DNA of 64,000 nt from Candidatus Berkelbacteria bacterium (lineage in GTDB: Bacteria; Patescibacteriota; UBA1384; XYA2-FULL-43-10; 1-14-0-10-43-13), in contig JBAWZC010000001.1 of the NCBI GenBank assembly GCA_037143235.1, positions 65,132 to 129,131 on the forward strand. The letters are read 5' to 3'. A program made the position numbers and the translations under genes. This document shows positions 27,615 through 60,889 of this stretch, one piece after another; position 1 is the stretch's first letter; the number at the start of each line of letters is the position of its first letter. Below the pieces are notes generated by a model, which worked only from the letters and a program-made list of their open reading frames with translations, was not told the DNA's origin and made no database searches.

Positions 27615-27700
27615 AAACTCCTCAGCTTCTCAGTTTGTCAACTTTCTAACTTATCAGCTTAAACACTTACTGGCTTATCAGCTTAAACTCTTACCAGTTT
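27615..27700. repeat. intergenic repeat family 'AGCTTAAACACTTACTAGCTTATCAGCTT' (tandem units)
   Basis: Similar arrays at 28085-28175 and 50560-50655. Confidence 0.75.
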
Positions 27701-27708
27701 ACTCGCTT

Positions 27709-28057
27709 CTGTCATCTCGAGCCCCCCCCTTTTTTTTGTCATCTCGAGCTTGTCGAGAGATCTTTCAACTCTGGATTCATCTCACAAATCAGAGCTAATT
27801 TCTTTGACCGACTCCATCTTTTTAACTGTTTTTCTCTTTCTAATATTACTTTAACATCATTTGATAATTCGAAATATACTAATTTATGGCATCTGTATTT
27901 CTTTGTAAATCCATCGACTAAATTGTTCTTATGCTCATATACTCTTCGGACAAGATCATTGGTCATGCCGATATACAACACATTACTAAAACTGGCCACA
28001 ATATAAACATAATATGTTTTATCTTGCATAAGATTTCTCCACAAGGTCGAAATGACA
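27709..28057 (-). mobile_element. mini mobile element: GIY-YIG endonuclease gene bracketed by inverted TGTCAT-hairpin repeats (27737-27762 and 28032-28057)
   Basis: TGTCATCTCGAGCTTGTCGAGAGATC on the 3' side and its relative GATTTCTCCACAAGGTCGAAATGACA (inverted) immediately 5' of the ORF start; solo half-copy plus poly(C)/poly(T) at 27709-27737. Confidence 0.6.
27739..28029 (-). CDS. GIY-YIG homing endonuclease-like protein
   Basis: Start MQDKTYYVYIVAS...LYIGMTNDLVRRVYEH (GIY..YIG, R, E motif); ORF-track N-extension is repeat-derived. Confidence 0.8.
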   Translation of the reverse strand: MQDKTYYVYIVASFSNVLYIGMTNDLVRRVYEHKNNLVDGFTKKYRCHKLVYFELSNDVKVILEREKQLKRWSRSKKLALICEMNPELKDLSTSSR

Positions 28058-28173
28058 GGAGTGTGATGGTCCAAACAACAGAAAAACCGGATGAAACGAC
28101 ACTGATTCAGCTAACTGGCTTTCTGGTATAAACAATTATTAGCTTAAACACTTACTAGCTTATCAGCTTGTTT

Positions 28174-33100: not shown

Positions 33101-35921
33101 TGATGCCATACTTGGCACCCAAAGTTTTTTCCACACTATTGCGTGAAGTATTATCTAAAATAGATTTTTGAATAACGACCGGCCCAATCCAACCGTCAAA
33201 GGCTCGGTCACCAGCCGCTTTATTGCCAAGATATGTTGGACCTCCAACAGTAGGAGGTCCAGATACTTGGTCAGCAGTTCCGCTGAGTGCCCCATTAATA
33301 TAAACATTAACTTTACCATCAGCTTTGCGTGTCACAGAAACAACGTAAGGAGTGTTAAAAGCAATTGAAGATATTGGTGTCACCGCATATCCTGTACTGC
33401 TATCACTACTAACCTGTATTGCATTACTATTTACATTACTCATGCATATATAAAATTTGGAATTATCAATAATTCTTCCCACACTACTGCCTCCACTACT
33501 TCTTGGTTTTATCACCGTCGTCACCGTTACATCGCCCGTACCAATCAAATCGGTAGAATTACCCAATGTATCATCAACCCCATCAAATTGAAAAGCTGGG
33601 TGGCTATTTATACCAGATACATCATAAACCGGTCGCAGGGTTTGAGATGTCTGAGTGAAGGTGTTGGAATGACCAGAAAGATCAGTTATTTTACTAACTG
33701 CACCATCATAATAACCAACACCGTATCCCTGAGTAACTGTTCCAACATCACTCAAGTCATTTCCATTGGCTGTCTGGTCTAACCTAGTTCCCGATTTTGT
33801 ATCTAAATTCCAAAATCCTTTGAGACTCGCATCACCAGAAATTGAAGTCGGTAGTCCCGCGTATTTTAATCCTTTGCCGCCATTAAATAATGCTGTTTTT
33901 TCATCTGTCGTTAAAATCCTCTTAATCATTCCCCAGCCGTCAGCACGACCTGGAAGAGAATTTGCTGCCCCATTGGCGTAACTACCGATATTGAAGTCAT
34001 TTGCTGCAGACAAAACCCCAGCGGAAGTCGCCGTAGTAACTGGCGTACCATTGTTTACACTAATAAATATCTGATTGTTTACTGAGTCGTGACCATAAAC
34101 GATAAAATACCAGTTGCTAGTTGAAACAACATCTGTGAATACATTCTGACTAGCGCTATCTGCAGCATTTCTGACATAGAATTGAAACCTATTAAATGGA
34201 GCAACTGTAGCAGTTCTCAACATATATTCACCACCAACACCATTGGCGTTTCCTTTAGAAATAATTCCGCCTGGATTAGAGCCGACAAAGAAATTGTCCA
34301 TATTCACCCAACCAAATAGAGTGAAGTCAATATCTCCAGTTTGTAAAGAGGCGTTGCTTGTTCGTTTTAGATAATTGCTTGTTCCATTAAACTGAGCTGC
34401 AAAGTTAGAGTCTGTTGAAAGTCCTGCAGCGATACCAGCAGCAGCCAGAGGTCCGACTGATTCAATAGTGACATTGTCCAAAAATACTGATTTTGAAATA
34501 TAACCTGAGTTTCCAGTAATATAGAAGTTACCATTAGTGGCTGTAAAATAAACTGTGTATTGAGCATAAGATGTCGTCAGTGTGACCGTTGAGTATCCTG
34601 TGTTACTATCACCAACCCTGATTACAACACCAGTTCCAGAAGCCTTACCATAGAAAGTTACCTTGTACTTTTTACCAGTGACCAAGCCTCCATTTTGAGC
34701 AAGGGAAGCACCTTGTGCAGCAGCATCAAAGTCAAACCTAGCAGCATAAGTTCCTGAGTAAGGAGCGGAAGTTTCAGCATTTATTGTTGATAATCCAGCA
34801 CGAGTCTCTATCCAAGTAGCAAATACGTCAGCACCACCAGCACCGAGAGTCTCAAATCCACCATTGAGAGTCGTAGCATTGATTAGTTGGACGCCAGCAG
34901 GAGTTAAATTGTTAGTACCCTTGGCGTCGTAGCGAGTGCCAGACTCCTCATTCATACCCCACCAAGAAGTCAATGCAGTTTGAAAACTATCCAAACCATT
35001 GGCCGAGGTCAAATCTGCATAAGTACGACCATTGCCAGAATTATACAAAGCTGTTGCTTCGCCAGAAGTTGAAATGGATTTTTTGAAATATGCGGAGTCG
35101 ATACGACCATTGAGAGGTAGTGCGAGGTCGGATTGATTTCCGATTACAAAGGCAGTAGCACCAGCCGTAATAGCTACATCAGCTAAAGAAATTGTAGCAG
35201 CATTATTGACAGAAATGTTGACTGTATTAGCCGTAGCGTCGTGCCAACCCCGAACAAAATACCAAGTAGAAAGGCTCGCCGTTCCAGTTTGTATTGCTAC
35301 CGCAGTATTACCACCAAACTTAAAGTTCTGACTAACAGATGAATACCAAAGTCCATATTCACCACTACCAGCTAATCCTTTTGAAATAATCATTCCACTC
35401 ACATTGCTATCAAGGTAAACCCACGCTCCAACCTCGAAATCGATATCACCAGTCTGGAGCGAGGCGTTGCTTGGAACAGTTAAATAGTCTTTGTTTGCTG
35501 CTGTAAACTGTGCCGCACCATCGGCACTGACGCCAGAAGCAGGGTTGATATTAGTCGTGGCACCAGTGGCAGCACCTGGAGTTGAAAGAGTCGCTTTTGA
35601 ACTTGTAGTGGAAATCCCAGCATCGGCCTGATAAATACTATTGTCGCCACTAAAATTCCAGGTTTGGGTTGCCGCCATAACCTTATCTGGCGAGCCACCG
35701 TAAAAAGTTGTAAGCAAAAAACTGGCGAGCAATAAGATGACGCCGACTGTGACCGAACCAGCTTTGACATTCAAATTCAAATGCTTTTTGCGAAGCTGCC
35801 AAGCAGATGGCTTCGCCGAGATATTATTTTTAACAGCAAAAACACTCTTCTTTACACCTAAAGCAAAAGTTTTTAGACCCTTTACAACTTTTTTGAGGCT
35901 AATCTGCAATCCCCTCCCCAA
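30114..35921 (-). CDS. giant secreted/surface protein (1935 aa) with repeated LamG/ConA-like jelly-roll and FN3-like modules
   Basis: N-terminal TM/signal; repeated LTVPSNASLQTGDIDF.. / LKRTSNASLQTGDIDF.. blocks; Ser/Thr/Asn/Gly-rich beta repeats. Confidence 0.7.
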   Translation of the reverse strand: MGRGLQISLKKVVKGLKTFALGVKKSVFAVKNNISAKPSAWQLRKKHLNLNVKAGSVTVGVILLLASFLLTTFYGGSPDKVMAATQTWNFSGDNSIYQADAGISTTSSKATLSTPGAATGATTNINPASGVSADGAAQFTAANKDYLTVPSNASLQTGDIDFEVGAWVYLDSNVSGMIISKGLAGSGEYGLWYSSVSQNFKFGGNTAVAIQTGTASLSTWYFVRGWHDATANTVNISVNNAATISLADVAITAGATAFVIGNQSDLALPLNGRIDSAYFKKSISTSGEATALYNSGNGRTYADLTSANGLDSFQTALTSWWGMNEESGTRYDAKGTNNLTPAGVQLINATTLNGGFETLGAGGADVFATWIETRAGLSTINAETSAPYSGTYAARFDFDAAAQGASLAQNGGLVTGKKYKVTFYGKASGTGVVIRVGDSNTGYSTVTLTTSYAQYTVYFTATNGNFYITGNSGYISKSVFLDNVTIESVGPLAAAGIAAGLSTDSNFAAQFNGTSNYLKRTSNASLQTGDIDFTLFGWVNMDNFFVGSNPGGIISKGNANGVGGEYMLRTATVAPFNRFQFYVRNAADSASQNVFTDVVSTSNWYFIVYGHDSVNNQIFISVNNGTPVTTATSAGVLSAANDFNIGSYANGAANSLPGRADGWGMIKRILTTDEKTALFNGGKGLKYAGLPTSISGDASLKGFWNLDTKSGTRLDQTANGNDLSDVGTVTQGYGVGYYDGAVSKITDLSGHSNTFTQTSQTLRPVYDVSGINSHPAFQFDGVDDTLGNSTDLIGTGDVTVTTVIKPRSSGGSSVGRIIDNSKFYICMSNVNSNAIQVSSDSSTGYAVTPISSIAFNTPYVVSVTRKADGKVNVYINGALSGTADQVSGPPTVGGPTYLGNKAAGDRAFDGWIGPVVIQKSILDNTSRNSVEKTLGAKYGITVAESSTPAASSSIYPTLSLKSPMTYSSLEGYSESLAGGSTGTLHYQLSNDSTVGSIASASYYYYNGAAWTLADKNNAYQTNTAAEVNANISTFPTITPAHNIKWRAFFVTDGIDNPALSSINMTYVSDTAAPNNPSVVTVVAKNALGGATTLTTDTWHNYATPSFSWTAPADNANQNELTSGLAGYLVYFGTDNTANIGLSSGLVAVGANNGSFIWQNTVGVSDTFTSSTTLVAGSTYYLKVVAVDNASNPAYHATSTDYNLFAYKYDNVAPATPLYVSVAPSGYSRTNNFTFTWPTTGQNAAVDTGGSGLQKYQYRIGNEVSWHDITGDATTNSVTLADVAAQGVNIFYLQAVDTAGNASSLPVRTNFYFNNLAPAAPANLRTTSANSSTNQFAFAWDASPGEIAGYYYSVNVVPSIDSANFASGTSLSTGSYATKQGENILYVVAKDNAGNYDFSGCSPSSVNYNANTDTCAAVAFSATTTAPGIPGAVQAYDISDRNTQNYAVAVKWNAPEDKGTGVFAGYNVYRSTDGVTFANIGPTDSRIFADAGSDVSPMISTQYYYYVVAKDSAGQSSAPSAVVSVTPTGRYTTPPVLVSAPKITVNPTSISVKWVTDRESSSFVQIKNGNTFVSEQGQVAQTTDHEVKVVGLKSQTDYTFNIRSTDVDGNSLLGPNQEFKTANTPSVYDLTVSNITQSSAIINFKSTSMANFTLKYGETSDFGENINEDSNSSTTNHSLAISNLKPGTTYFYRLVGGDSDGNELRSENSFATLPMPTISKFGIEPVKEAPTTTLKVAWETNVPTSGTVKYSTDGVNFKEQSISDLSLVHEIVVSDLADNQKYTVYSQGRDQFGNVAESTKTVFDTPNDSRPPRISDIVIESSNIGNTGNAKAQVAVSWKTDEPASSQVEFGIGLSGNEYTNKTSLDTTFTNHHLVIISDLDPGKPYHLRILSADMSANMSTSGDNTVISGDISRSALQIILNTMQNIFGWMGRWIK

Positions 35922-36035
35922 ATTTATTTACACTTTTCACTTCGGAACTGTATACATATAATTATATACAAAAAAATAACTCGCGACAATGGCAGACAAG
36001 TTATTTTTTTCTGTTCTATAGCTTTTTACAAAGAT

Positions 36036-36178
36036 TGGTGCCCGAGGCGGCCTGCCCGCCATCGCAAGGCTCAGGCATTGCAGGCGGGGAGTCGAACCCG
36101 CATAGCTTGAGGCCACATCATTTTAAGTGATGCGTACCTGCCTGCCGGCAGGCAGGTATACCATTCCACCACTCGCCC
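36036..36178 (-). pseudogene. tRNA-Leu(UAA)-like chimeric/disrupted copy
   Basis: Shares 5' acceptor/D-arm and anticodon arm (CATCA-CTTAAAA-TGATG) with intact tRNA at 36305-36389 but has a 20-nt palindrome (CTGCCTGCCGGCAGGCAGG) after the D-arm, a ~34-nt insert after the T-arm, and a 3' acceptor (CTCGGGC) that pairs with the 5' fragment at 36690, not its own 5' end. Confidence 0.55.
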
Positions 36179-36304
36179 ATTATTGTTTTAACTATTTTCC
36201 AAGAACCGTTTATAAGCTCTATTCTACCATTCAATGAGAAATCGGCTACCTTTTTGTGAAGCAAAAGAATGGCTGCGGATCGGCATGCTGTTTAAATTTA
36301 TTTG

Positions 36305-36389
36305 TGGTAGGCGAGGCGGGAGTCGAACCCGCATCCCTTGAGGGGACATCATTTTAAGTGATGCGTGTATACCATTCCACCACTCGCCC
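36305..36389 (-). tRNA. tRNA-Leu(UAA), CCA encoded
   Basis: GGGCGAG..GTGGAATGGTATAC..CATCA-CTTAAAA-TGATG..long variable arm..GCGGGTTCGACTCCCGC..CTCGCCT-ACCA. Confidence 0.85.
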
Positions 36390-36390
36390 A

Positions 36391-36632
36391 TTATTGTTTT
36401 AACAAACCGTCGATCTCTTCTCTTCCGATACCTGATTTAAAATACTTTTCTCTTTCCCGTGCTTCTGTTCTAGTGGCATATTTCTCAAAATGAATCAACT
36501 TCAAGGGCATTTTATTTTTCGTTGACCGAACTCTTCCAGAATTATGCTGACTTATTCTTCTTTCAAGATTATCAGTTAATCCTTTGTAAACAAAATTACG
36601 AGACTCTGATTTTAGAAGATACACATAATACA
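36391..36632 (-). CDS. GIY-YIG homing endonuclease-like protein
   Basis: Start MYYVYLLKSESRNFVYKGLTDNLERRISQHN; ATG directly abuts a duplicated tRNA anticodon-loop segment; ORF-track N-extension is tRNA-derived. Confidence 0.8.
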
Positions 36633-36690
36633 TTTTAAGTCCTTCGTGCCTGCCTGCCGGCAGGCAGGTATACCATTCCACCACTCGGGC
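36633..36690 (-). pseudogene. tRNA-Leu 5'-half fragment (acceptor GCCCGAG..D-arm..palindrome..anticodon loop CTTAAAA)
   Basis: GCCCGAGTGGTGGAATGGTATAC-CTGCCTGCCGGCAGGCAGG-CACGAAGGACTTAAAATG; ends at GIY-YIG ATG. Confidence 0.6.
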
Positions 36691-36692
36691 TT

Positions 36693-37700
36693 TTATACAA
36701 TTTCCCAAATATTATTGACCTTGGATAGCTCACCTTCGATCGTAAACCCAGCAGCTTTTTTATGGCCGCCGCCGCCAAGCAGTGAGGCTAATTTTGACAG
36801 GTCAACATCATCTCGCTCAGTTCGCAAGCTCCCCATGATAGTACCATTTTCACTCTCGTATATCAACAAAGTCGCCCGAGTTCCGGGCACAGTATTCAGC
36901 AAATTAATCAAACCAGAAAGATCATCCTCTGACGCCCCAGATAGCAATCTATCTTCTTTCGACAAAACTGAATAAGCAATGCCAAACTCATCATTTATCG
37001 ACAGACGATCCATCGCCACTCCCCAAATTTTCAGCTTTGAAACTGACTTTTCGTGAGAAATATTCTCAGAGATTTTCTTCAATCTAGCTCCACAACACAA
37101 CAGCTTGGAGACTATTTTCATCACATCTTCCGAGGTATTGCTGTGCTGAAAACCGCCTGTATCAGTGTATATTCCGCACAAAATATAGGTCGCAACATCA
37201 GCATCAATATCACAGCCTAGTCCAGTTACGATCCGATAAACTATTTCAGCCGTCGAACTTGCCTGATCATCCACATAGTTCACATCGGCCAGTCGCCAGA
37301 GATCATTTTTGGGATGATGGTCGATATTGATAACAAAATTGCCATTTTTCTTGCAGTCAAGAATCATTTGCTCAACCTTGGTTCGACGCAAATCACCACA
37401 ATCCAAAATAATGATCGTCTCTTCTTGGGAAACAGTGAGACTATGAAGTCCATTCGTACTAACAATCTGGTCGTGCTCACCGAGAAATCGGAAAACTTCC
37501 GGTACTGGGTCAGCACAAATCATTCTGACTTCCTTGTTCTTTTGCCTCAACATTGCCGCCATTGCAAGAATAGACCCGACGGCATCACCATCAGGACTCT
37601 CGTGGCAAATGAGCACAAAAGATTTGGTTCCCTCGATCAACTTTTTCAGATTTGAGAATGAACCCATGTGAAATATAATTACCGATTGATCAAGATACAA
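36693..37700 (-). CDS. DHH/DHHA1 family phosphoesterase (NrnA-like)
   Basis: LICHESPDGDAVGS, NIDHHP motifs. Confidence 0.85.
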   Translation of the reverse strand: MYLDQSVIIFHMGSFSNLKKLIEGTKSFVLICHESPDGDAVGSILAMAAMLRQKNKEVRMICADPVPEVFRFLGEHDQIVSTNGLHSLTVSQEETIIILDCGDLRRTKVEQMILDCKKNGNFVINIDHHPKNDLWRLADVNYVDDQASSTAEIVYRIVTGLGCDIDADVATYILCGIYTDTGGFQHSNTSEDVMKIVSKLLCCGARLKKISENISHEKSVSKLKIWGVAMDRLSINDEFGIAYSVLSKEDRLLSGASEDDLSGLINLLNTVPGTRATLLIYESENGTIMGSLRTERDDVDLSKLASLLGGGGHKKAAGFTIEGELSKVNNIWEIV

Positions 37701-37850
37701 TAACCAAGAAACAATAATCAGTTAATATCCAATTACCAATTTCCAACCTGCCTGTCGGCAGACAAATTACTCAATCAATGTTCATATAATCAAATTACCA
37801 AATAAATGGCTAAATGATTAATTGATTAAATGACTAAATGATTAAATGCT
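37681..37850. repeat. ~150-nt intergenic repeat family copy (inverted orientation)
   Basis: reverse complement matches 24827-24980 family (..ggatattaactgattattgtttcttggttattgtatcttg..). Confidence 0.75.
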
Positions 37851-38330
37851 TTAGCTCTCCAACACATACGCTACTCGGCCCTCGACTGGCAAATCAGACT
37901 TTTTGATCTTCAGCAGATCAACTGAAGTAGCCTTCTCCGCAGCAGTAAATTCAGCAATGTCAGTATACAGCATTGGGATGACGCAAAATGGATCGATCTT
38001 CGATAACATCGTCAAAGCCTCCTTGATCTTCACGGAACCGTCTTCACCCAAAGGCAAGAACAAAATATCAATATTACCAATCTCCTTGATCTCGTCTTCC
38101 TTGAGCAGATGGCCAATCTTGCCGAGATAACAGATGTTCAACTCTTCGGCACGAATAACATATATAGCATTTGATTCATCTTGTATACCATGGACGATCA
38201 CACCGCTCTTCTCGTATTCACCGGGACCAGGCAAAACAAATTTATCAATTGACACAGTATAACCAAGATCAATAGTGGCAGACTTCGTTTTGATTTCGAA
38301 TTTTTCGCCACCAAGAAATTTTATTTGCAT
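37851..38330 (-). CDS. hypothetical protein, possible MBL-fold-like small hydrolase
   Basis: MQIKFLGGEKFEIKTK...; lacks clear HxHxDH, so only fold-level guess. Confidence 0.35.
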   Translation of the reverse strand: MQIKFLGGEKFEIKTKSATIDLGYTVSIDKFVLPGPGEYEKSGVIVHGIQDESNAIYVIRAEELNICYLGKIGHLLKEDEIKEIGNIDILFLPLGEDGSVKIKEALTMLSKIDPFCVIPMLYTDIAEFTAAEKATSVDLLKIKKSDLPVEGRVAYVLES

Positions 38331-38341
38331 ATTTCCCCTCT

Positions 38342-39658
38342 CTACTTAGTTTTCTTCTCGGCCTTAACCTTTTTTTCTTTAACCGGTTTTTCTTCGACTA
38401 CAGCCTCGATCATATCTTCAACCTTTTTGGTCTTGGTTGCTTTCGAAACCTTCTTCTCGGCAACTTTATCGGTTGATTCGCTTGGCTCAACATCAGCTGA
38501 GACAGAATCTTCCTTCGCTGCAGCTTTTGCTGACTTTTTCAATGTCAGACCAAGTCTATGACTATCAGTTTCAATATTGATAATTGTGAAATCGTATTTT
38601 TTACCAACTTCGACAAATAGATTCGGATCAGTCACTTTATCAGAAGATAGCTCAGAAATATGAACTAAACCGTCAATATCTTTATCAAGAGAGACAAAAG
38701 CACCAAACGGCGTGATCTTTGTGACTTCACCATTGATAGACTGACCTACTTTGTATTTAGCTGTAGCTTGTGACCATGGATCAGGCAAAAGTTTCTTGAT
38801 CGATAGAGAAACCCTACCATCATCGACAGAGATAACCATAGTTTCGACTTCGTCACCAACCTTAAATAGATTGTGCAGGTTGTTTACACGAGTCCAAGAA
38901 ATTTCTGAGATATGGACGAGTGCTTCGATCTCAGGATCGATTGAAACAAATAAACCGAAATCAACGATACCAGTGATGCGGCCCTTAATCTTGTCGCCGA
39001 CAGCAAATTTATCAATCTTAGTCTTGACCTCAGTTGCTCTGACAGCTTTTTCCGAAAAAATCAGCTTATTGTTCTCGAGATCGCAGTTGATAACTTTTAC
39101 AGACAACTCTTCGCCGATAATCTGACGCAGTCTATTCAAGATTTCATCCTTGTCGCCGCCATGAACACGTGGGTAGTGGATTGGCGCCAGCTGCGACACA
39201 GGCAAAAAGCCCATGATGCCGCCAGTTTCAGTCATCAAGCCACCTTTGTTCGCATCAGTAATTTTGATAGAAACAGGCTCGCCAGATTTGAATTTGGCTT
39301 CCATCTCGGCCCAGAACTTATCACGATCAGCTCGTTTGAGAGACAAAACAACATTACCTTCTTCGTCCTCCATCGCTATAACTGTCGCTAAAATCATATC
39401 CCCGACCTTGAGACCAGCTCTAGTCGTAATTTCACGCTCTGGCACAAAGCCAAGCGACTGGCCAGCCACATCAACCCAGATGCGGTTGCCACTGACAGCC
39501 AAAATCTTAGCTTCGATATTGTCACCCTCAGAGAATGGCAAAATTTTATCACCAAGTTCGGCGATCAAGCTCTCCATCGTATCAACTTTTGGTTTTGTAG
39601 AAACAGCTGTTTTTTCTGCTGCAACCTCTTCTGTTTTTTCGATCTGTTCGTCTACTGA
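38342..39658 (-). CDS. rpsA: 30S ribosomal protein S1 (four S1 domains, Lys-rich tail)
   Basis: Repeated S1 OB-fold units (G..V.G.V..I...G.FV.L); start MSVDEQIEK. Confidence 0.85.
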   Translation of the reverse strand, partial: SVDEQIEKTEEVAAEKTAVSTKPKVDTMESLIAELGDKILPFSEGDNIEAKILAVSGNRIWVDVAGQSLGFVPEREITTRAGLKVGDMILATVIAMEDEEGNVVLSLKRADRDKFWAEMEAKFKSGEPVSIKITDANKGGLMTETGGIMGFLPVSQLAPIHYPRVHGGDKDEILNRLRQIIGEELSVKVINCDLENNKLIFSEKAVRATEVKTKIDKFAVGDKIKGRITGIVDFGLFVSIDPEIEALVHISEISWTRVNNLHNLFKVGDEVETMVISVDDGRVSLSIKKLLPDPWSQATAKYKVGQSINGEVTKITPFGAFVSLDKDIDGLVHISELSSDKVTDPNLFVEVGKKYDFTIINIETDSHRLGLTLKKSAKAAAKEDSVSADVEPSESTDKVAEKKVSKATKTKKVEDMIEAVVEEKPVKEKKVKAEKKTK

Positions 39659-39677
39659 CATGCTATTAATTCCTTTC

Positions 39678-40088
39678 TTATTTCTTTTTCTTTGGTAAAT
39701 ATTTATTATATTTCGATTCAATTGACTTTACTTTGGTCGTGATCGCAATAGTTTTTGTCATGATAGTGGCTTCAACAACCAGCCAGACAAAAAATACGAC
39801 GACAATCACATCCAAAACAATTCTAGCTGACAGATAGGGCAAATTTTCAGATCGGACGAAGGTATATATCAATCCGATCAGTCCCACCGTCATCAAGATC
39901 GTAAACAAGCGAGACAAAGTTTTCTTTATCTCCCCTTTCAAGAAAAACCACACACAGGCCAATACGACCAAAAGGCCAAAACACGATGAATACAGGATAG
40001 TCAGTAATGTCGAAGCTGGTGGTCGCGGATCCAACAACATGCTGGTCGTAAAATAACTAAACAAGTTTTGAAAAAAATCTGTCATGTT
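39678..40088 (-). CDS. hypothetical membrane protein
   Basis: Start MTDFFQN...; 3 TMs; longer ORF-track version would overlap tRNA-Leu(GAG). Confidence 0.5.
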   Translation of the reverse strand, partial: NMTDFFQNLFSYFTTSMLLDPRPPASTLLTILYSSCFGLLVVLACVWFFLKGEIKKTLSRLFTILMTVGLIGLIYTFVRSENLPYLSARIVLDVIVVVFFVWLVVEATIMTKTIAITTKVKSIESKYNKYLPKKKK

Positions 40089-40109
40089 TGATTCTCGTGA
40101 TTCCAATTG

Positions 40110-40196
40110 TGGTGCCGGGAACAGGACTTGAACCTGCAAGCTTTTTACAGCACAGCCACCTCAAGGCTGCGAGTTTACCAATTTCTCCATCCCGGC
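40110..40196 (-). tRNA. tRNA-Leu(GAG), CCA encoded
   Basis: GCCGGGA..anticodon loop TTGAGGT..long variable arm..GGTTCAAGTCC..TCCCGGC-ACCA. Confidence 0.85.
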
Positions 40197-40793
40197 AATA
40201 ATTGCTTTTTCAAACTTATCTTTTTTTCTTGTCAAAAATATCCGAGCGTTTTTATACATATTTTGATATATGACAAATGATGCTTTTTTTGCAAATGTCA
40301 GCTGAAAAACACTACCAGATTTTTTAATTTTTCCTCGAACATGCAGAAGATCCTCAATAGTGTCCCTAATCCACTCCAGATGAGTCCTGCTGGCACTAAT
40401 AAATTGAGTATATATCATATAACTACTCTTCCACCGTTTATCCCAATAAGAATAACTCGAACCATCTCCGTCGAAGCAGCCACGCAAAAAATGAAGAAAA
40501 TATTTATCTGGCACCTTGATAATTCCAATCGTCTTCGATTTATTGGGGGTTAATCCGATAGTCAACATCCACCGATATAAAGCAACATCGCTAAATTGAA
40601 TTCTCGGGTACATCCGACCACAACCTCCAACTTTCCAAGTTATCTTATGATCAGCTGACAAACATTTATTAAAGTTTTCTAGCTGTTCAATATCTTTTGA
40701 AGTCAAATCCAAATGGCGACCATCCCTTGAAAGATTGCCATCTGTTACCATCAAACCAACTGCATATGCTATTTTAGACGACCACCTTGGCAT
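40161..40793 (-). CDS. LAGLIDADG homing endonuclease (double-motif)
   Basis: AYAVGLMVTDGN and HFLRGCFDGDGS motifs; 3' 36 nt overlap tRNA-Leu(GAG) 5' half. Confidence 0.85.
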   Translation of the reverse strand: MPRWSSKIAYAVGLMVTDGNLSRDGRHLDLTSKDIEQLENFNKCLSADHKITWKVGGCGRMYPRIQFSDVALYRWMLTIGLTPNKSKTIGIIKVPDKYFLHFLRGCFDGDGSSYSYWDKRWKSSYMIYTQFISASRTHLEWIRDTIEDLLHVRGKIKKSGSVFQLTFAKKASFVIYQNMYKNARIFLTRKKDKFEKAIIAGMEKLVNSQP

Positions 40794-40917
40794 AGTTGTC
40801 CAAATCTCAAGATAATAGTGTCTACCACTATTTTAACAAATAAAGACAAGTTGTAAAAGTGCTATTTGATGGAATTGGCTCCATTTTGAAAAAACCGTTG
40901 CTTGAATTATGTCAAGC

Positions 40918-40993
40918 GTGGTGCGCGCTGAGGGGCTCGAACCCCCGACATCCTCGGTGTAAACGAGGCGCTCTACCAACTGAGCTAAGCGCG
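40918..40993 (-). tRNA. tRNA-Val(UAC), CCA encoded
   Basis: GCGCGCT-TA-GCTCAGTTGGTAGAGC..CCTCG-TTTACAC-CGAGG..GGGGGTTCGAGCCCCCT-CAGCGCGC-ACCA. Confidence 0.88.
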
Positions 40994-41007
40994 CATATAA
41001 ACAAAAA

Positions 41008-41023
41008 ATCGGGCTTCAGCCCG
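41008..41023. terminator. short GC hairpin (tcgggcttcagcccga) between tRNA genes
   Basis: flanked by A-run and T-run; could be processing/terminator element. Confidence 0.4.
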
Positions 41024-41124
41024 AGTAATTTTTACACTATTCAAGCTGGTTTAATGATTTTTATAAATATAATATATCAAATAAAATCAATACTGTCAAA
41101 GTCGAGAAAAAACCTATTCTTTTC

Positions 41125-41162
41125 TTGGTGTGGCACTGAGCGTCGCTTATACCACACTAAGC
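41125..41162 (-). pseudogene. degenerate tRNA-like fragment (GCTTAGTGTGGTATAAGCGACGCTCAGTGCCACACCA)
   Basis: Resembles collapsed tRNA-Leu(CAG) 5'/3' ends incl. terminal ACCA; adjacent to intact gene. Confidence 0.45.
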
Positions 41163-41247
41163 ATGGTGCCGAAGGCGGGATTTGAACCCGCAATCCGTGA
41201 GGAACACGGCTCTGAACCGTGCGCGTATACCAATTCCGCCACTTCGG
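41163..41247 (-). tRNA. tRNA-Leu(CAG), CCA encoded
   Basis: GCCGAAG..anticodon loop TTCAGAG..long variable arm..GCGGGTTCAAATCCCGC-CTTCGGC-ACCA. Confidence 0.85.
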
Positions 41248-41253
41248 CAATAA

Positions 41254-41484
41254 TCAAATTCTTTTTTTTAAATAGGCTCTGCCAAATCCAGTCTTCAATG
41301 ATTTTTCTCTCGAGATTGCTTTTTCTCTGCTCAGACATGCCTCGTAATACACCAACTTGAAAGGAATTCTGTCGCTCGTTGATTTCACCTTGCCAGCATT
41401 ATGTTCTTCCACTCGTCCTTTCAAATCATCAGACCACCCGATATACAAATCGTTATCTCGCAAACTCTTTAATACATAAGTGTA
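41254..41484 (-). CDS. GIY-YIG homing endonuclease-like protein
   Basis: MYYTYVLKSLRDNDLYIGWSDDLKGRVEEHN; 6 nt from tRNA-Leu(CAG); upstream leader shares GGCCTGCCCGCC..ATCGCAA..CAGGCATTGC block with insert in tRNA-like 36036-36178. Confidence 0.8.
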   Translation of the reverse strand, partial: YTYVLKSLRDNDLYIGWSDDLKGRVEEHNAGKVKSTSDRIPFKLVYYEACLSREKAISREKSLKTGFGRAYLKKRI

Positions 41485-41617
41485 ATACATAGCCTTATTA
41501 TATTCCATTTCACCCGCCTGCAAAAGCTGCTGCTTTAGCAATGCCTGCCAGCAATCGCTTTGCGATAGCAATGCAGGCTGGCGGGCAGGCCATTCGCCCA
41601 TAAACAAATAAAACTCT

Positions 41618-43141
41618 CTACAAATCGCTGACTTTTTTCACTCGCTTCTCCATGATGTACCAATTACTGATATCTGCAAATCTTGATCCAGGGATATTAC
41701 CACGGACATCAGCAACAGCCTTGATCTCACTTTTGACAAAATATTTATACTTAATTGGATCAAAAGTCTGATACAGATACTCACTCTGAAGCTTGGCATA
41801 AATCTGATCGTATTTGGCATTTCGCGCGTTCACATCGAGCAACATTCGCGCATCTTCGATCAGAATATCTGTCGCCTTGTCGCTATATCCAGAAAAGTTT
41901 TTCAGATCCTTCTGTGATGAATGCCAGAAAGCGTACGGGTCTCGATCGTAGCCTCGGTCATAGCCATAGACAAGTAGCTCGAAGTCTTTGCTATTAATTG
42001 CCGCCTGATAGTCTTGCAGGCTGAGATATCGAACTTGAATTGACACATTCTTTTTCTGCAGCGCAGCTTTCTCTTTCTCGGCCACAGCCCTCTGAATATC
42101 ATTGTCCTGTGCCGTGATTGTAAAAGTAGCCTTTGCATCAAAATCAGTCTGCCCAAAAAGTTTTTCACGTCCTGCTTTTGTCGAAAGGCTGGCTTTGCGC
42201 GTGTTGGCAAATAAAATCAACTCTTTTTGCGAATTATAGCTACGATCGATTGCGTCCTTCGCCTCAGCTCCAAATATGGCCGACACGGCTCTATTTTTGC
42301 CAAATGCTGCCACAGCGCTAGCTTCAGTTGTATAGAGATCAAAGGTAAGTTTCTGAATATATGGTGCTACACCATAATAATTACTATTTGACTGAAGCTG
42401 AACCTGTGTAATCTTGTTGTCAGTCTGGATACCCTTGGTAAATTTATATTTACCAGCCCCCGTAAACCGCTTAGAAAAAGTAACAGGATCAACATTGGCC
42501 GGAATTATGCCAAAATTACAATTATAAATAAATGGTCCGTACGAATTTGGCAAGTTAAAAGTGACCGAATTTTGATCCAGATCATAAGATACTGTCACGC
42601 CCTTTAAGTTCGCGGCCAGCGGACTTTTCAGAGAGTCAGAGAGAATATTGGAAACTGTATATGACACATCGGACGGCGAAAGTGGTGTGCCATCGTCAAA
42701 AGTAATACCGTTTCGTAGGTAAAAAGTATATGTCTTCTCGTCTTTGCCTATCTCCCAGCGCTCAGCCAGATCCGGCAATATTTCACCATTAGAACCAACT
42801 GAAATCAGCCCTGGGAAAATCAATGACGAAATAGACTTTTCGGCGTCAGTAGTGACCAAGACTGGGTTTAAGGTTTTGACCTCGCCAACCATCGCCTCTT
42901 CGTACACACCACCAACGATCGGCACGGCAACAGTTCGATAAAGATAGCTTCGATAGATCAAGAAAACACCCAAGGCTACCGCCAGAGCAGTCAAAAGAAC
43001 AGCAATCACTCTCTCCCACATTGGCATCAGCTTGAAGCTTATAGCCAATCTTTTGAAAAATTTACCAATATTATAAGCAGAATTTCGAATGAAATTCCCG
43101 ACTAATTCAAAAATAACCTGAATTTTGGTTTTGTTCGACAT
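41618..43141 (-). CDS. membrane-anchored solute-binding protein (family 5, OppA/DppA-like)
   Basis: N-terminal TM; size and SBP_bac_5-like composition; by-eye call. Confidence 0.5.
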   Translation of the reverse strand: MSNKTKIQVIFELVGNFIRNSAYNIGKFFKRLAISFKLMPMWERVIAVLLTALAVALGVFLIYRSYLYRTVAVPIVGGVYEEAMVGEVKTLNPVLVTTDAEKSISSLIFPGLISVGSNGEILPDLAERWEIGKDEKTYTFYLRNGITFDDGTPLSPSDVSYTVSNILSDSLKSPLAANLKGVTVSYDLDQNSVTFNLPNSYGPFIYNCNFGIIPANVDPVTFSKRFTGAGKYKFTKGIQTDNKITQVQLQSNSNYYGVAPYIQKLTFDLYTTEASAVAAFGKNRAVSAIFGAEAKDAIDRSYNSQKELILFANTRKASLSTKAGREKLFGQTDFDAKATFTITAQDNDIQRAVAEKEKAALQKKNVSIQVRYLSLQDYQAAINSKDFELLVYGYDRGYDRDPYAFWHSSQKDLKNFSGYSDKATDILIEDARMLLDVNARNAKYDQIYAKLQSEYLYQTFDPIKYKYFVKSEIKAVADVRGNIPGSRFADISNWYIMEKRVKKVSDL

Positions 43142-45398: not shown

Positions 45399-45473
45399 TG
45401 GAGGCCTGGTCGGGAATCGAACCCGACTACGCGGTTTTGCAGACCGCTGCCTAACCTCTCGGCCACCAGGCCA
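45399..45473 (-). tRNA. tRNA-Cys(GCA), CCA encoded
   Basis: GGCCTGG..GCGGT-CTGCAAA-ACCGC..GGGTTCGATTCCC..CCAGGCC-TCCA. Confidence 0.85.
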
Positions 45474-45474
45474 T

Positions 45475-45738
45475 TTATTTGACTGACAAATAACTGGCTA
45501 ATTGTTTTTTCAAAAATCTGCGACCAGATCCACTTTTTAGAAATTTCTCTCTTCCCAGAGCGTCTCTCTTGTCAAGATAACTTTCGGAATAAATCAACTT
45601 CCAACATCCTTGCTTCCGACCGGTATAATCACCGCCGATCTTGCTATTATGTTCCGTCAATCTGCGATCGATATCAGTCGTAAATCCTGTATACCAAGAC
45701 TTATCGATCGAATTCTCAATCAGATAAACGAAAAACAT
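45475..45738 (-). CDS. GIY-YIG homing endonuclease-like protein
   Basis: MFFVYLIENSIDKSWYTGFTTDIDRRLTEHN; abuts tRNA-Cys by 1 nt. Confidence 0.8.
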   Translation of the reverse strand: MFFVYLIENSIDKSWYTGFTTDIDRRLTEHNSKIGGDYTGRKQGCWKLIYSESYLDKRDALGREKFLKSGSGRRFLKKQLASYLSVK

Positions 45739-45910: not shown

Positions 45911-45950
45911 TGGTGCCGATGGTCAGAATTGGACTGACGACACAAGGCCC
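45911..45950 (-). pseudogene. 3' half of a split tRNA-Phe paralog (..CCTTGTGTCGTCAGTCCAATTCTGACCATCGGCACCA)
   Basis: T-arm + acceptor CATCGGC-ACCA pairs with 5' half at 46100-46130 (GCCGATG). Confidence 0.55.
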
Positions 45951-46008
45951 CGAAAAACAAATCTTTGATTTGTATCGGGGTAAAATTTTCAACTTGCCCC
46001 GTAAAAAT

Positions 46009-46083
<75 letters not shown>

Positions 46084-46099
46084 CAATTTTTTTTACGGG

Positions 46100-46130
46100 G
46101 TCCTCTGCTCTACCACTGAGCTACATCGGC
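46100..46130 (-). pseudogene. 5' half of the split tRNA-Phe paralog (GCCGATGTAGCTCAGTGGTAGAGCAGAGGAC)
   Basis: Ends in anticodon stem; followed by CCCGTAAAAA.. inverted-repeat arm. Confidence 0.55.
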
Positions 46131-60162: not shown

Positions 60163-60798
60163 ATGGATTTGAAATGGAATAAAAACCTAGCATACGCTGT
60201 TGGCTTATTCGTTTCTGATGGTTATTTATCAATAGATGGCCGTCATCTAGATTTTACCTCAAAAGATATTGAGCAAATTGAAAATTTCAAGCAATGCCTC
60301 TCCATCACAACGCCAATATCTCTAAAATCAAACGGACACAACAATCGCGACTACTTTCGCATCCAATTCAGCAATGTTGCGCTATATAAGTTTTTTAACA
60401 AAATAGGCATCACAAACAATAAAAGCCTAACGATTAGTCAGGTGGAAATAAACGTCAGGTTTTTCGCTGATTTTTTGCGAGGACTACTCGACGGTGACGG
60501 ATCGATTAGCCTATCGAAGCACCCTGAAAGCAAATTTTTGCAAGTAAAAATACGATTTGCCTCCGGTAGTAAAAATTTTCTAGTTTGGCTGATGAAAAAT
60601 ATAAAAAACGAGACAACCGTCACGGGAGGTTTTTTAGTAAGTGTTTCGCGTTGTTGGCAACTAGTTTACGGCAAAAATGACTCACAAAAATTGATTCGTT
60701 ATATGTACAGTAAAGACAATATTATTTGTCTTAGCCGAAAAAAAGCAACTGCGATGTCTGTTTTACGTTTACAAGAGGAACAAAATAAGGTAAAATAG
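60163..60798 (+). CDS. LAGLIDADG homing endonuclease (paralog of 40161-40793)
   Basis: AYAVGLFVSDGY and DFLRGLLDGDGS; ~45% identical by eye to the other copy; ends 8 nt before tRNA-Leu(UAG). Confidence 0.85.
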   Translation: MDLKWNKNLAYAVGLFVSDGYLSIDGRHLDFTSKDIEQIENFKQCLSITTPISLKSNGHNNRDYFRIQFSNVALYKFFNKIGITNNKSLTISQVEINVRFFADFLRGLLDGDGSISLSKHPESKFLQVKIRFASGSKNFLVWLMKNIKNETTVTGGFLVSVSRCWQLVYGKNDSQKLIRYMYSKDNIICLSRKKATAMSVLRLQEEQNKVK

Positions 60799-60805
60799 TC
60801 TTAAT

Positions 60806-60889
60806 GCGGGCGTGGCGAAATGGTACACGCGCATGCCTTAGGAGCATGTGGGGAAACCCTTGGAGGTTCAAGTCCTCTCGCCCGCACCA
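60806..60889 (+). tRNA. tRNA-Leu(UAG), CCA encoded
   Basis: GCGGGCG..CATGC-CTTAGGA-GCATG..long variable arm..GGTTCAAGTCC..CGCCCGC-ACCA. Confidence 0.85.

Follow-up and report, generated by a model that had tools for sequence, protein, structure and literature searches.

Homing endonuclease genes normally persist in self-splicing introns or inteins, and their loss is expected once they are fixed. In the tRNA gene cluster of phage T4, a free-standing GIY-YIG homing endonuclease, SegB, is encoded among the tRNA genes (PMC2330249). In bacteria of the candidate phyla radiation (CPR), LAGLIDADG homing endonucleases have been described in rRNA insertions (PMC11270868), and HNH genes have been described in tRNA group I introns of Patescibacteria (PMC13011429); the main text of these two reports does not mention a linkage to tRNA-Leu genes. 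Here, we analyse nuclease open reading frames (ORFs) that abut tRNA-Leu genes in a stretch of 64,000 nucleotides (nt) from a Candidatus Berkelbacteria genome (contig JBAWZC010000001.1; hereafter, the window), with emphasis on its positions 40110–41484.

The recurrent arrangement at these loci is a cassette composed of a pseudo 5′ half of a tRNA that extends to the 3′ side of the anticodon loop, a nuclease ORF and a complete tRNA, which starts within a few nt of the end of the ORF or overlaps it. Given this shared anatomy, the inserted DNA should comprise the ORF together with either a newly supplied 5′ half or an entire tRNA. From the sequences of these loci, we lean toward the interpretation that free-standing homing-type endonuclease cassettes entered tRNA genes and rebuilt their target.

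Nuclease ORFs at tRNA-Leu genes of the window

ARAGORN and Rfam agreed on eight tRNA genes in the window. Three of them, all on the minus strand, lie within 40110–41484: an intact tRNA-Leu(GAG) (40110–40196; a full-length Rfam tRNA match of 52.9 bits), tRNA-Val(TAC) (40919–40994) and an intact tRNA-Leu(CAG) (41164–41248). The two other tRNA-Leu genes are an intact tRNA-Leu(TAA) (36305–36389, minus strand) and a tRNA-Leu(TAG) (60806–60889, plus strand). At all four tRNA-Leu genes, a nuclease ORF is located directly upstream on the same strand.

The ORF preceding tRNA-Leu(GAG) (40161–40793, minus strand) encodes a LAGLIDADG protein of 210 amino acids (aa) with two motifs. A first-pass annotation, made from the sequence alone, had this ORF running 36 nt into the tRNA gene, and re-measurement gave an overlap of exactly that length: the final 12 codons and the stop lie inside tRNA-Leu(GAG), and the stop codon is the TGA of the anticodon loop (U33-G34-A35, in the context ccTTGAgg). 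A paralogous ORF of 211 aa (60163–60798, plus strand) precedes tRNA-Leu(TAG), as also annotated, although its stop codon is 7 nt and not 8 nt ahead of the tRNA. The two proteins align with 45 per cent identity (E-value 6e-46), which upholds their proposed paralogy.

The paralogue at 60163–60798 is recognized by the Pfam LAGLIDADG_3 profile (PF14528; E-value 7e-10). A profile built from 20 members of the family matches solved LAGLIDADG enzymes, namely I-Tsp061I (PDB 2dch; E-value 1.3e-8), I-CreI and I-DmoI, so that the annotated LAGLIDADG identity is sustained at the level of the family, with the 40161–40793 copy alone remaining sub-threshold. The two motifs, IAYAVGLMVTDGNL and FLRGCFDGDGS, each end in a catalytic acidic residue. 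The catalytic Asp18 and Asp110 are invariant in the alignment of the 20 members and, in a manual alignment, correspond to D20 of I-CreI. We assign the 40161–40793 ORF to the LAGLIDADG enzymes because of the profile matches and the invariance of both Asp residues, whose retention also makes it likely that the proteins are active. NCBIfam holds no informative family for the six proteins that we searched; its sole match, to a model of an intein-containing ribonucleotide reductase, is far under the cut-off of that model and was rejected as a name.

Linkage of LAGLIDADG ORFs to tRNA-Leu isoacceptors in CPR genomes

A database search retrieved 825 homologues of the LAGLIDADG ORF, and the close family comprises approximately 370 clusters (at 50 per cent identity) at E-values of at most 1e-30. 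In a scan limited to one genome per species, we found at least 500 LAGLIDADG relatives and kept the best 80 loci, all of which originate from CPR-type metagenome-assembled genomes (a few deviant labels look like mis-binning or automatic labelling). A same-strand tRNA-Leu(GAG) adjoins the ORF in 76 of the 80 loci, which amounts to every assessable locus, as in the remaining four the contig ends just past the ORF. In 75 of the 76 loci, the open frame ends within −39 to +44 nt of tRNA position 1. Specifically, the end of the frame falls inside tRNA-Leu(GAG) at 32 loci (at 14 of them, exactly on the anticodon-loop TGA) and 0–39 nt ahead of the tRNA at 43. The ORF is truncated at a single locus (L069) and intact at the other 75.

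The subfamily of the window's paralogue is linked to its own tRNA in the same manner: all six fetched homologues (50–57 per cent identity) adjoin tRNA-Leu(TAG), with differing neighbour genes. In other genomes, two more LAGLIDADG paralogues precede tRNA-Phe and tRNA-Leu(TAA). The LAGLIDADG lineages are therefore isoacceptor-specific, with Leu(GAG) and Leu(TAG) lineages and rarer Leu(TAA) and Phe ones, and the annotated pairing of each window paralogue with its own tRNA-Leu isoacceptor holds well beyond the window. As a negative control, we examined 80 distant relatives in viral contigs, none of which has a tRNA nearby. We rejected a phage origin of the ORFs, as the viral-contig LAGLIDADG relatives are only 23–36 per cent identical and none is near a tRNA, while the GIY-YIG ORFs described below have just four viral matches. 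Six other CPR loci carry tRNA-Leu(TAG) without a LAGLIDADG ORF, and empty sites therefore exist for the TAG subfamily.

Proteins of the LAGLIDADG Leu(GAG) family are more alike inside a class of wider tRNA synteny than across classes (identity of 0.58 vs 0.536; permutation test, P-value < 0.001). The LAGLIDADG/tRNA-Leu(GAG) pair is ancient, is present in at least hundreds of Patescibacteria species and is almost always intact. Because identity follows the synteny classes and nearly all ORFs are intact, the pair looks near-fixed and mainly vertically inherited. It does not look like a recent arrival in the tRNA cluster, which the first-pass annotation had described as colonized.

tRNA-half relics and putative promoters

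Upstream of most Leu(GAG)-linked ORFs, we found a conserved motif, aaTTGGtA.ACGCTaT.acCTTGAG (strict pattern at 40 of 76 loci), whose parts match the D loop, the 5′ anticodon-stem strand and the anticodon of tRNA-Leu(GAG). The consensus of this relic includes …TTGGTAGACGCTATTACCTTGAGGT, and its homology to the tRNA ends just past the anticodon loop. The acceptor strand is also retained upstream at L009, L075, L077 and L079, and relics of the same type exist for Leu(TAG) at L249 and L250. In the window, the tRNA-Leu(GAG) 5′-half relic GTGGTAGACACTATTATCTTGAG (40806–40828, minus strand) was recognized by eye as a match to the family consensus; the regions upstream of the window's Leu(TAG) paralogue and of its tRNA-Cys-linked GIY-YIG ORF yielded no significant relic. 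The relics indicate that the ORFs entered tRNA genes, and they thereby bear out the insertion part of the earlier suggestion that tRNA-Leu genes serve as homing sites.

Between loci, the relics are on average more similar to each other (identity of 0.74) than to the tRNA of their own locus (0.45), and the corresponding value for the real tRNAs is 0.69. The relic therefore seems to be under constraint, since the LAGLIDADG proteins are just ~50–55 per cent identical. Immediately after CTTGAGG there is a TATAAT-like box, which in the subclass with a long N-terminus usually lies 6–8 nt ahead of the ATG. The relic appears to have been recruited as a promoter in the LAGLIDADG/Leu(GAG) family: in the proposed sigma-70 promoter, the D-loop TTGG(T/C)A would provide the −35 element, followed by an 18-nt spacer and by the TATAAT-like −10 element. 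An alternative −35 box, TTGAGG, was rejected, as its spacing to the −10 element is wrong and TTGGTA with 18 nt fits. The short distance between the box and the ATG suggests leaderless mRNAs in the long-N-terminus subclass.

The LAGLIDADG copy of the window has a better-matching promoter-like site slightly upstream of the relic (TTTACA-16-TAAAAT, TG-extended; 40830–40857, minus strand; consensus scan). For the minus-strand interval from the ORF start to tRNA-Leu(GAG), the same type of scan gave no promoter-like site, and therefore the tRNA probably depends on read-through of the ORF. A terminator-like hairpin 3′ of tRNA-Val (40900–40917, minus strand; consensus scan) would isolate that tRNA from the LAGLIDADG/Leu(GAG) unit. 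Further upstream, between tRNA-Leu(CAG) and tRNA-Val, there is a strong promoter-like site (TTGACA-17-TATATT, TG-extended; 41099–41071, minus strand) that is followed, in an odd order, by another terminator-like hairpin (41024–41009, minus strand).

GIY-YIG ORFs and their pseudo-tRNA leaders

The ORF upstream of tRNA-Leu(CAG) encodes a minimal, UPF0213/SLX1-like GIY-YIG protein of 78 aa that starts with MYYTY... (41254–41490, minus strand). The first-pass annotation had correctly noted its adjacency to the tRNA, but we redrew the frame, and the stop codon is 5 nt and not 6 nt ahead of tRNA-Leu(CAG). A second GIY-YIG ORF (36391–36633, minus strand), 43 per cent identical to the first, ends 1 nt before tRNA-Leu(TAA), and a third (45478–45738, minus strand) has its stop codon 5 nt before tRNA-Cys (45399–45472). 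A fourth ORF of this type (27775–28032, minus strand; Pfam E-value 1e-14) has no adjoining tRNA and is flanked on both sides by arrays of repeats with an 8/16-nt period (TTATCAGCTTAAACACTTAC...; 27627–27708 and 28120–28169).

Pfam PF01541 matches GIY-YIG ORFs of the window with E-values of 1.7e-13 (the ORF at 41 kb) and 2.4e-16. In the GIY-YIG alignment, the Y, Y, G, R and H residues are invariant and the E is nearly so. Profile comparison with PDB entries retrieved the UPF0213 structures 1zg2 and 1ywl (E-values of ~1e-16) and SLX1 (1e-6), and I-TevI with an E-value of just 0.006. Stand-alone prokaryotic GIY-YIG proteins of the SLX1-like/UPF0213 class consist of the minimal domain and have no auxiliary domains (PMC1564403). 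Judged by these matches, the GIY-YIG proteins of the window belong to this stand-alone class and not to the I-TevI/Seg type.

GIY-YIG relatives number in the hundreds (64–82 per cent identity), and the named ones are mostly labelled Patescibacteria, Parcubacteria, Woesebacteria or Berkelbacteria. We fetched 80 metagenome loci, 77 of which have enough downstream sequence; the scan for these loci relied on an alignment of four sequences, since one with 12 GIY-YIG sequences had proved too divergent. A same-strand tRNA starts 0–120 nt past the GIY-YIG match in 41 of the 77 loci, and these tRNAs have 18 different anticodons. An upstream copy of approximately tRNA positions 1–21 is present in ~20–25 of the 41 loci (z of 8–46). 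With 18 anticodons beside its relatives, the GIY-YIG ORF is not specific to tRNA-Leu genes, and its UPF0213/SLX1-like protein, a catalytic domain without a DNA-binding domain, is not a homing enzyme of the I-TevI/Seg type.

Several of the GIY-YIG loci also carry 3′ remnants downstream of the intact tRNA. In the window, a candidate decayed remnant at 41126–41162 (minus strand) has its best local match at positions 17–41 of tRNA-Leu(CAG); the collapsed tRNA-like fragment of the first-pass annotation thus corresponds to a real match, but a weak one (z of 4.1, P-value = 0.006). At L083 (~1430–1700), the GIY-YIG ORF is followed by a sequence resembling the 5′ part of a tRNA-Tyr (…CTGTAAAA…). ARAGORN leaves it uncalled, and it may belong to an intron-containing tRNA such as those described from Patescibacteria.

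The leader of the 41-kb GIY-YIG ORF is a pseudo-tRNA, composed of an acceptor piece (GGGCGAATGG; 41590–41599), a GC-rich branched hairpin inserted after pseudo-tRNA position 10 (41513–41589; folding energy of −53.5 kcal/mol, z of −2.7) and a D-loop piece (TGAAATGGAATATAAT; 41497–41512), all on the minus strand. Without the hairpin, the leader matches positions 1–22 of tRNA-Leu(TAA) (z of 7.5) and not the downstream tRNA-Leu(CAG), and therefore the leader moved with the GIY-YIG ORF to a new tRNA. The D-loop piece includes a TATAAT (41497–41502) that sits 6 nt ahead of the ATG, because of which the mRNA of this ORF may be leaderless. Inserts homologous to the hairpin are found at metagenome loci L082, L084, L086, L099 and L103.

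In exact-pattern searches, the block GGCCTGCCCGCC occurs twice in the window, at 36049 (plus strand) and 41591 (minus strand), and the insert at 36049–36087 equals the leader element 41513–41591 minus three internal pieces, in reverse orientation. These searches uphold the relationship that had been proposed between the leader at 41485–41617 and the insert at 36036–36100, and the 36-kb and 41-kb loci are indeed connected by the GC-rich block; this block belongs, however, to a separate hairpin that is located in pseudo-tRNAs and outside of the GIY-YIG gene. A MAFFT alignment of the two GC-rich blocks did not display their block structure, which the exact-pattern searches did.

The 36-kb locus presents a fuller version of the cassette, with the minus-strand order of pseudo 5′ half, GIY-YIG ORF, intact tRNA-Leu(TAA) and dead tRNA copy. 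The pseudo 5′ half (36631–36690) covers tRNA-Leu(TAA) positions 1–38 with the acceptor strand GCCCGAG, and a perfect 20-nt palindrome, CCTGCCTGCCGGCAGGCAGG (36649–36668), is inserted after its position 22. Its anticodon-stem strand has changed to GAAGGA, which is Shine-Dalgarno-like, and its A38 together with the next two (stem) bases forms the ATG of the GIY-YIG ORF. The intact tRNA-Leu(TAA), which starts 1 nt past the GIY-YIG stop codon, has the acceptor strands GGGCGAG/CTCGCCT. The dead full-length copy (36036–36178), which Rfam does not call a tRNA even at E-values of up to 1, contains the palindrome (36137–36156) and a GC hairpin (36049–36089), and CTCGGGC, its acceptor strand on the 3′ side, is complementary to GCCCGAG in the relic upstream (at 36690). 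Complementary acceptor halves thus surround the cassette, and an older tRNA gene has accordingly been split around a nuclease gene and a working tRNA.

Elsewhere in the window, an older tRNA-Phe is likewise split at its anticodon loop on the minus strand, with the 5′ half at 46100–46130 and the 3′ half at 45911–45947. These halves have complementary acceptor strands and a decayed T loop. The insert between them, bordered by the inverted repeats CCCCGTAAAA/TTTTACGGGG, holds a new intact tRNA-Phe (46009–46083); no nuclease ORF was found inside it (45911–46130).

The exact palindrome CCTGCCTGCCGGCAGGCAGG was found again in 11 of the 80 GIY-YIG metagenome loci, where the neighbouring tRNAs differ. 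Of 76 GIY-YIG loci, 41 have a GC-rich hairpin in the 140 nt upstream, compared with 30 of 318 control windows. A related but larger hairpin, CCYGCCYGCC…ATCGCAAG…GGCGGGCRGG, occurs at many loci in either orientation and is of the same family as the hairpins at 41513–41589 and 36049–36089. The mirror layout, with an intact tRNA, a GIY-YIG ORF and a hairpin-bearing dead copy, is also seen, and some of these dead copies carry the hairpin in their T loop, behind GGTTC. The position of the hairpin inside the pseudo-tRNA varies, being either after positions 7–29 or in the T loop. We considered and rejected GIY-YIG insertion solely at tRNA positions 21–23, as the apparent gap is the hairpin insert and the pseudo-tRNA resumes to approximately position 38. 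The palindrome could be a substrate of the SLX1-like nuclease, a barrier to recombination between repeats or an RNA stabilizer. In another CPR genome (L007, 4999–5018), the exact palindrome is located 12 nt past tRNA-Leu(TAG), with no GIY-YIG match reported nearby.

Other nuclease ORFs at tRNA 5′ ends

In the closest relative of the window (L001; bacterium CG2_30_37_16), an HNH ORF (4260–4742; Pfam E-value 5e-6) overlaps the start of tRNA-Leu(TAA) by 13 nt and occupies the slot that the GIY-YIG ORF has in the window. ORFs with HNH motifs also abut tRNA-Phe or tRNA-Gly at L018, L052 and L078. Of the 215 tRNA genes surveyed in the window and in the CPR loci that were fetched, 17 have a recognizable GIY-YIG, LAGLIDADG or HNH ORF ending at their 5′ end. 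This count excludes tRNA-Leu(GAG), on which the loci had been selected, as well as three hits at tRNA-Val that stem from neighbouring Leu(GAG) ORFs. Among ORFs without a BLAST match, inspection by eye revealed HNH motifs in at least three, and about five form a further uncharacterized family. Members of the latter (L005, L012, L045, L058 and L079) end 0–15 nt into tRNA-Ile(tat), Pro, Val(gac) or Gly and share the C-terminal pattern YW..L.IP..F...K...G.C/F.V; they may represent another nuclease family of the same niche.

Proposed cassette entry into tRNA genes and alternative explanations

In the scenario that we favour, an ORF would enter a tRNA gene at the 3′ side of the anticodon loop and bring with it either a whole tRNA or a new 5′ half; the rebuilt copy would thereby keep the essential tRNA alive even though its gene had been split. 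The displaced 5′ half would then drive the ORF and the tRNA as one transcription unit, tRNA expression would depend on reading through the nuclease gene, and the nucleases would cleave cassette-free tRNA genes. Where the ORF ends inside the tRNA, the stop codon would be lost when RNase P cleaves at the 5′ end of the tRNA, which would make translation of the full-length protein and maturation of the tRNA from one transcript mutually exclusive.

The annotated free-standing nature of the endonuclease ORFs is upheld. In 35900–41700, Rfam found only four tRNAs and no ribozyme, either at the gathering threshold or at E-values of up to 1, and we accordingly rejected the presence of a group I intron or another structured RNA at the ORFs. 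Each ORF has a complete tRNA downstream, and no tRNA is split into two exons without an intact copy. The features of integrative elements at tRNA attachment sites are absent as well: it is the 5′ half that is duplicated, and there is no integrase-sized ORF between the copies.

We propose more tentatively, as possible rather than probable, the composite in which LAGLIDADG, minimal GIY-YIG and HNH nucleases all form target-rebuilding cassettes, with the relic as promoter, the tRNA as hostage, and the GIY-YIG ORF joined to a mobile GC-rich palindrome that would mark dead tRNA copies and possibly be the substrate of an SLX1-like, structure-specific nuclease. Several observations weigh against the target-rebuilding interpretation. 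The rebuilt tRNA keeps the region into which the ORF was inserted, which leaves self-immunity without an explanation. Within the window, the stretch upstream of the 40-kb ORF shows no significant similarity to the adjoining tRNA-Leu(GAG), and the Pfam LAGLIDADG_3 match of that ORF is under the cut-off (E-value 0.005). All promoter calls are consensus matches only. Alleles without the nuclease gene, for which the first-pass annotation had suggested a search, exist for tRNA-Leu(TAG) at the six CPR loci, but none was seen for tRNA-Leu(GAG) among the CPR genome loci, all of which were picked for carrying the ORF; at L158, a single metagenome locus of unknown taxon, a GIY-YIG and not a LAGLIDADG ORF is upstream of tRNA-Leu(GAG). 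The GIY-YIG proteins, at 76–81 aa, are bare catalytic domains without a DNA-binding domain, whereas I-TevI/Seg-type enzymes have a separate one for site specificity, and sequence-specific homing is therefore doubtful for them. Finally, the tracking of synteny by protein identity and the 75 intact ORFs fit a domesticated gene equally well.

Domestication is the strongest of the alternatives, though we regard it as rather unlikely. The LAGLIDADG protein would have ceased to be selfish and would be a host factor maintained by selection, such as a WhiA-like DNA-binding regulator or an operator-binding autoregulator of the tRNA-Leu(GAG) unit, and the relic would be its binding site or promoter. This explanation accommodates a family found in at least 500 species-level genomes, its intact ORFs (75 of 76), a divergence that follows synteny class (0.58 vs 0.536) and relics that are as conserved between loci as real tRNAs (0.74 vs 0.69). 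It also has precedents in WhiA, a regulator derived from a LAGLIDADG protein, and in I-TevI, which represses its own promoter via an operator similar to its homing site. WhiA-type proteins, however, are not known to have the LAGLIDADG catalytic Asp residues, both of which are invariant here. Moreover, the Leu(TAG), Phe and Leu(TAA) sister subfamilies are sporadic and cassette-free alleles exist, as for mobile elements, and three unrelated nuclease families in the same niche argue for a selfish logic.

For the GIY-YIG loci alone, the unit could be a recombination or transposition element made of the hairpin-bearing pseudo-tRNA and the GIY-YIG ORF, which would integrate next to the cognate tRNA by homologous, Campbell-type recombination; alternatively, the SLX1-like nuclease would act on a cruciform of the palindrome. 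The two mirror layouts fit single crossovers on either side of the hairpin, 11 of 80 unrelated loci, with differing tRNA neighbours, share the identical perfect palindrome, the SLX1/UPF0213-like nuclease has no DNA-binding domain, and the 41-kb leader goes back to a tRNA of the Leu(TAA/TAG) type and not to the adjacent Leu(CAG), so that the leader travels with the ORF. Nevertheless, no circular form, integrase or terminal repeats are evident, the position of the hairpin is variable and the switch between tRNA identities lacks an explanation; we judge such an element to be quite unlikely.

The cassettes could also descend from an intron-borne endonuclease, with a group I intron of the anticodon loop whose ribozyme was lost after the downstream tRNA had been restored, for example, by recombination with a spliced tRNA. 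The junction at the 3′ side of the anticodon loop is the classic region for tRNA introns, and group I introns are numerous in the tRNA genes of Patescibacteria, where some of them contain HNH genes (PMC13011429). Yet neither a group I intron nor any other ribozyme is matched even at E-values of up to 1, and there is no room for one: in the 'MGKRGPKPK...' subclass, the relic is ~20 nt from the ATG, and the distance from the stop codon to the tRNA is mostly at most 11 nt. This improbable origin would, in any case, concern the past of the cassettes and not their present state. Chance adjacency or a gene-calling artefact, to which the sub-threshold Pfam match of the 40-kb ORF might point, is practically negligible given the 825 homologues, the 370 clusters at E-values of at most 1e-30, the tRNA adjacency in all 76 assessable loci and the match of the family profile to solved LAGLIDADG enzymes.

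If target rebuilding is correct, it suggests a third survival strategy for homing-type nucleases, in which an essential RNA gene is split, rebuilt downstream and its transcription captured; a concrete example would be a cassette that has apparently persisted in a large, deep-branching bacterial phylum, across at least hundreds of its species. The family would also supply a set of probably very specific nucleases with predictable natural targets, the tRNA-Leu isoacceptor genes. For annotation of CPR genomes, overlapping ORF and tRNA calls, pseudo-tRNA halves and hairpin-disrupted tRNA copies are to be expected. Two testable questions arise: whether nuclease-free tRNA-Leu(GAG) alleles exist, and what the function of the conserved 20-nt palindrome is.

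Comparison with known systems

In the open-access literature, we found no description of the LAGLIDADG/tRNA-Leu linkage, of tRNA-half relics as promoters or of the composite of hairpin-bearing pseudo-tRNA and GIY-YIG ORF, and searches on GIY-YIG genes beside tRNAs and on the palindrome sequence gave nothing relevant beyond the SegB, CPR rRNA-insertion and tRNA-intron papers. SegB resembles the window in being an intron-less nuclease gene among tRNA genes, and it is thought to promote the inheritance of itself and of the tRNA region. SegB is an I-TevI-like GIY-YIG homing endonuclease with a separate DNA-binding region and is phage-borne, whereas the GIY-YIG protein of the window is a cellular, 78-aa UPF0213/SLX1-like domain that is rare in viral contigs. 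The SegB system is not known to include a pseudo-tRNA half, a rebuilt tRNA or a GC hairpin.

The LAGLIDADG genes of CPR rRNA insertions share with those of the window the phylum, the Pfam LAGLIDADG_3 superfamily and the use of conserved RNA genes as landing sites. However, the known CPR genes reside inside rRNA insertions or self-splicing tRNA introns, and no ribozyme was detected in the window. Unlike in those cases, the tRNA of the window is partly duplicated but uninterrupted, and the ORF lies upstream of the intact tRNA and overlaps it. The likeness to I-TevI and WhiA consists in a nuclease-family protein with a conserved, target-like element at its own putative promoter, with the difference that the predicted catalytic residues are kept in the window.

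Endonuclease ORFs of fungal mitochondria, such as the GIY-YIG ORF of Allomyces atp6, bring a replacement end of the invaded gene and leave the displaced original end as a pseudogene fragment, with GC-rich double-hairpin elements in the vicinity. Those ORFs replace the 3′ end of a protein gene in an organelle, whereas in the window it is the 5′ half of a bacterial tRNA that is displaced, with the relic as a putative promoter. Short GC-rich palindromic inserts that occur in either orientation in an AT-rich genome are also known as the mobile GC clusters of yeast mitochondria and as palindromes resembling miniature inverted-repeat transposable elements or repetitive extragenic palindromic sequences. 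By contrast, in the loci that we examined, the hairpins lie inside dead tRNA copies that flank a GIY-YIG ORF.

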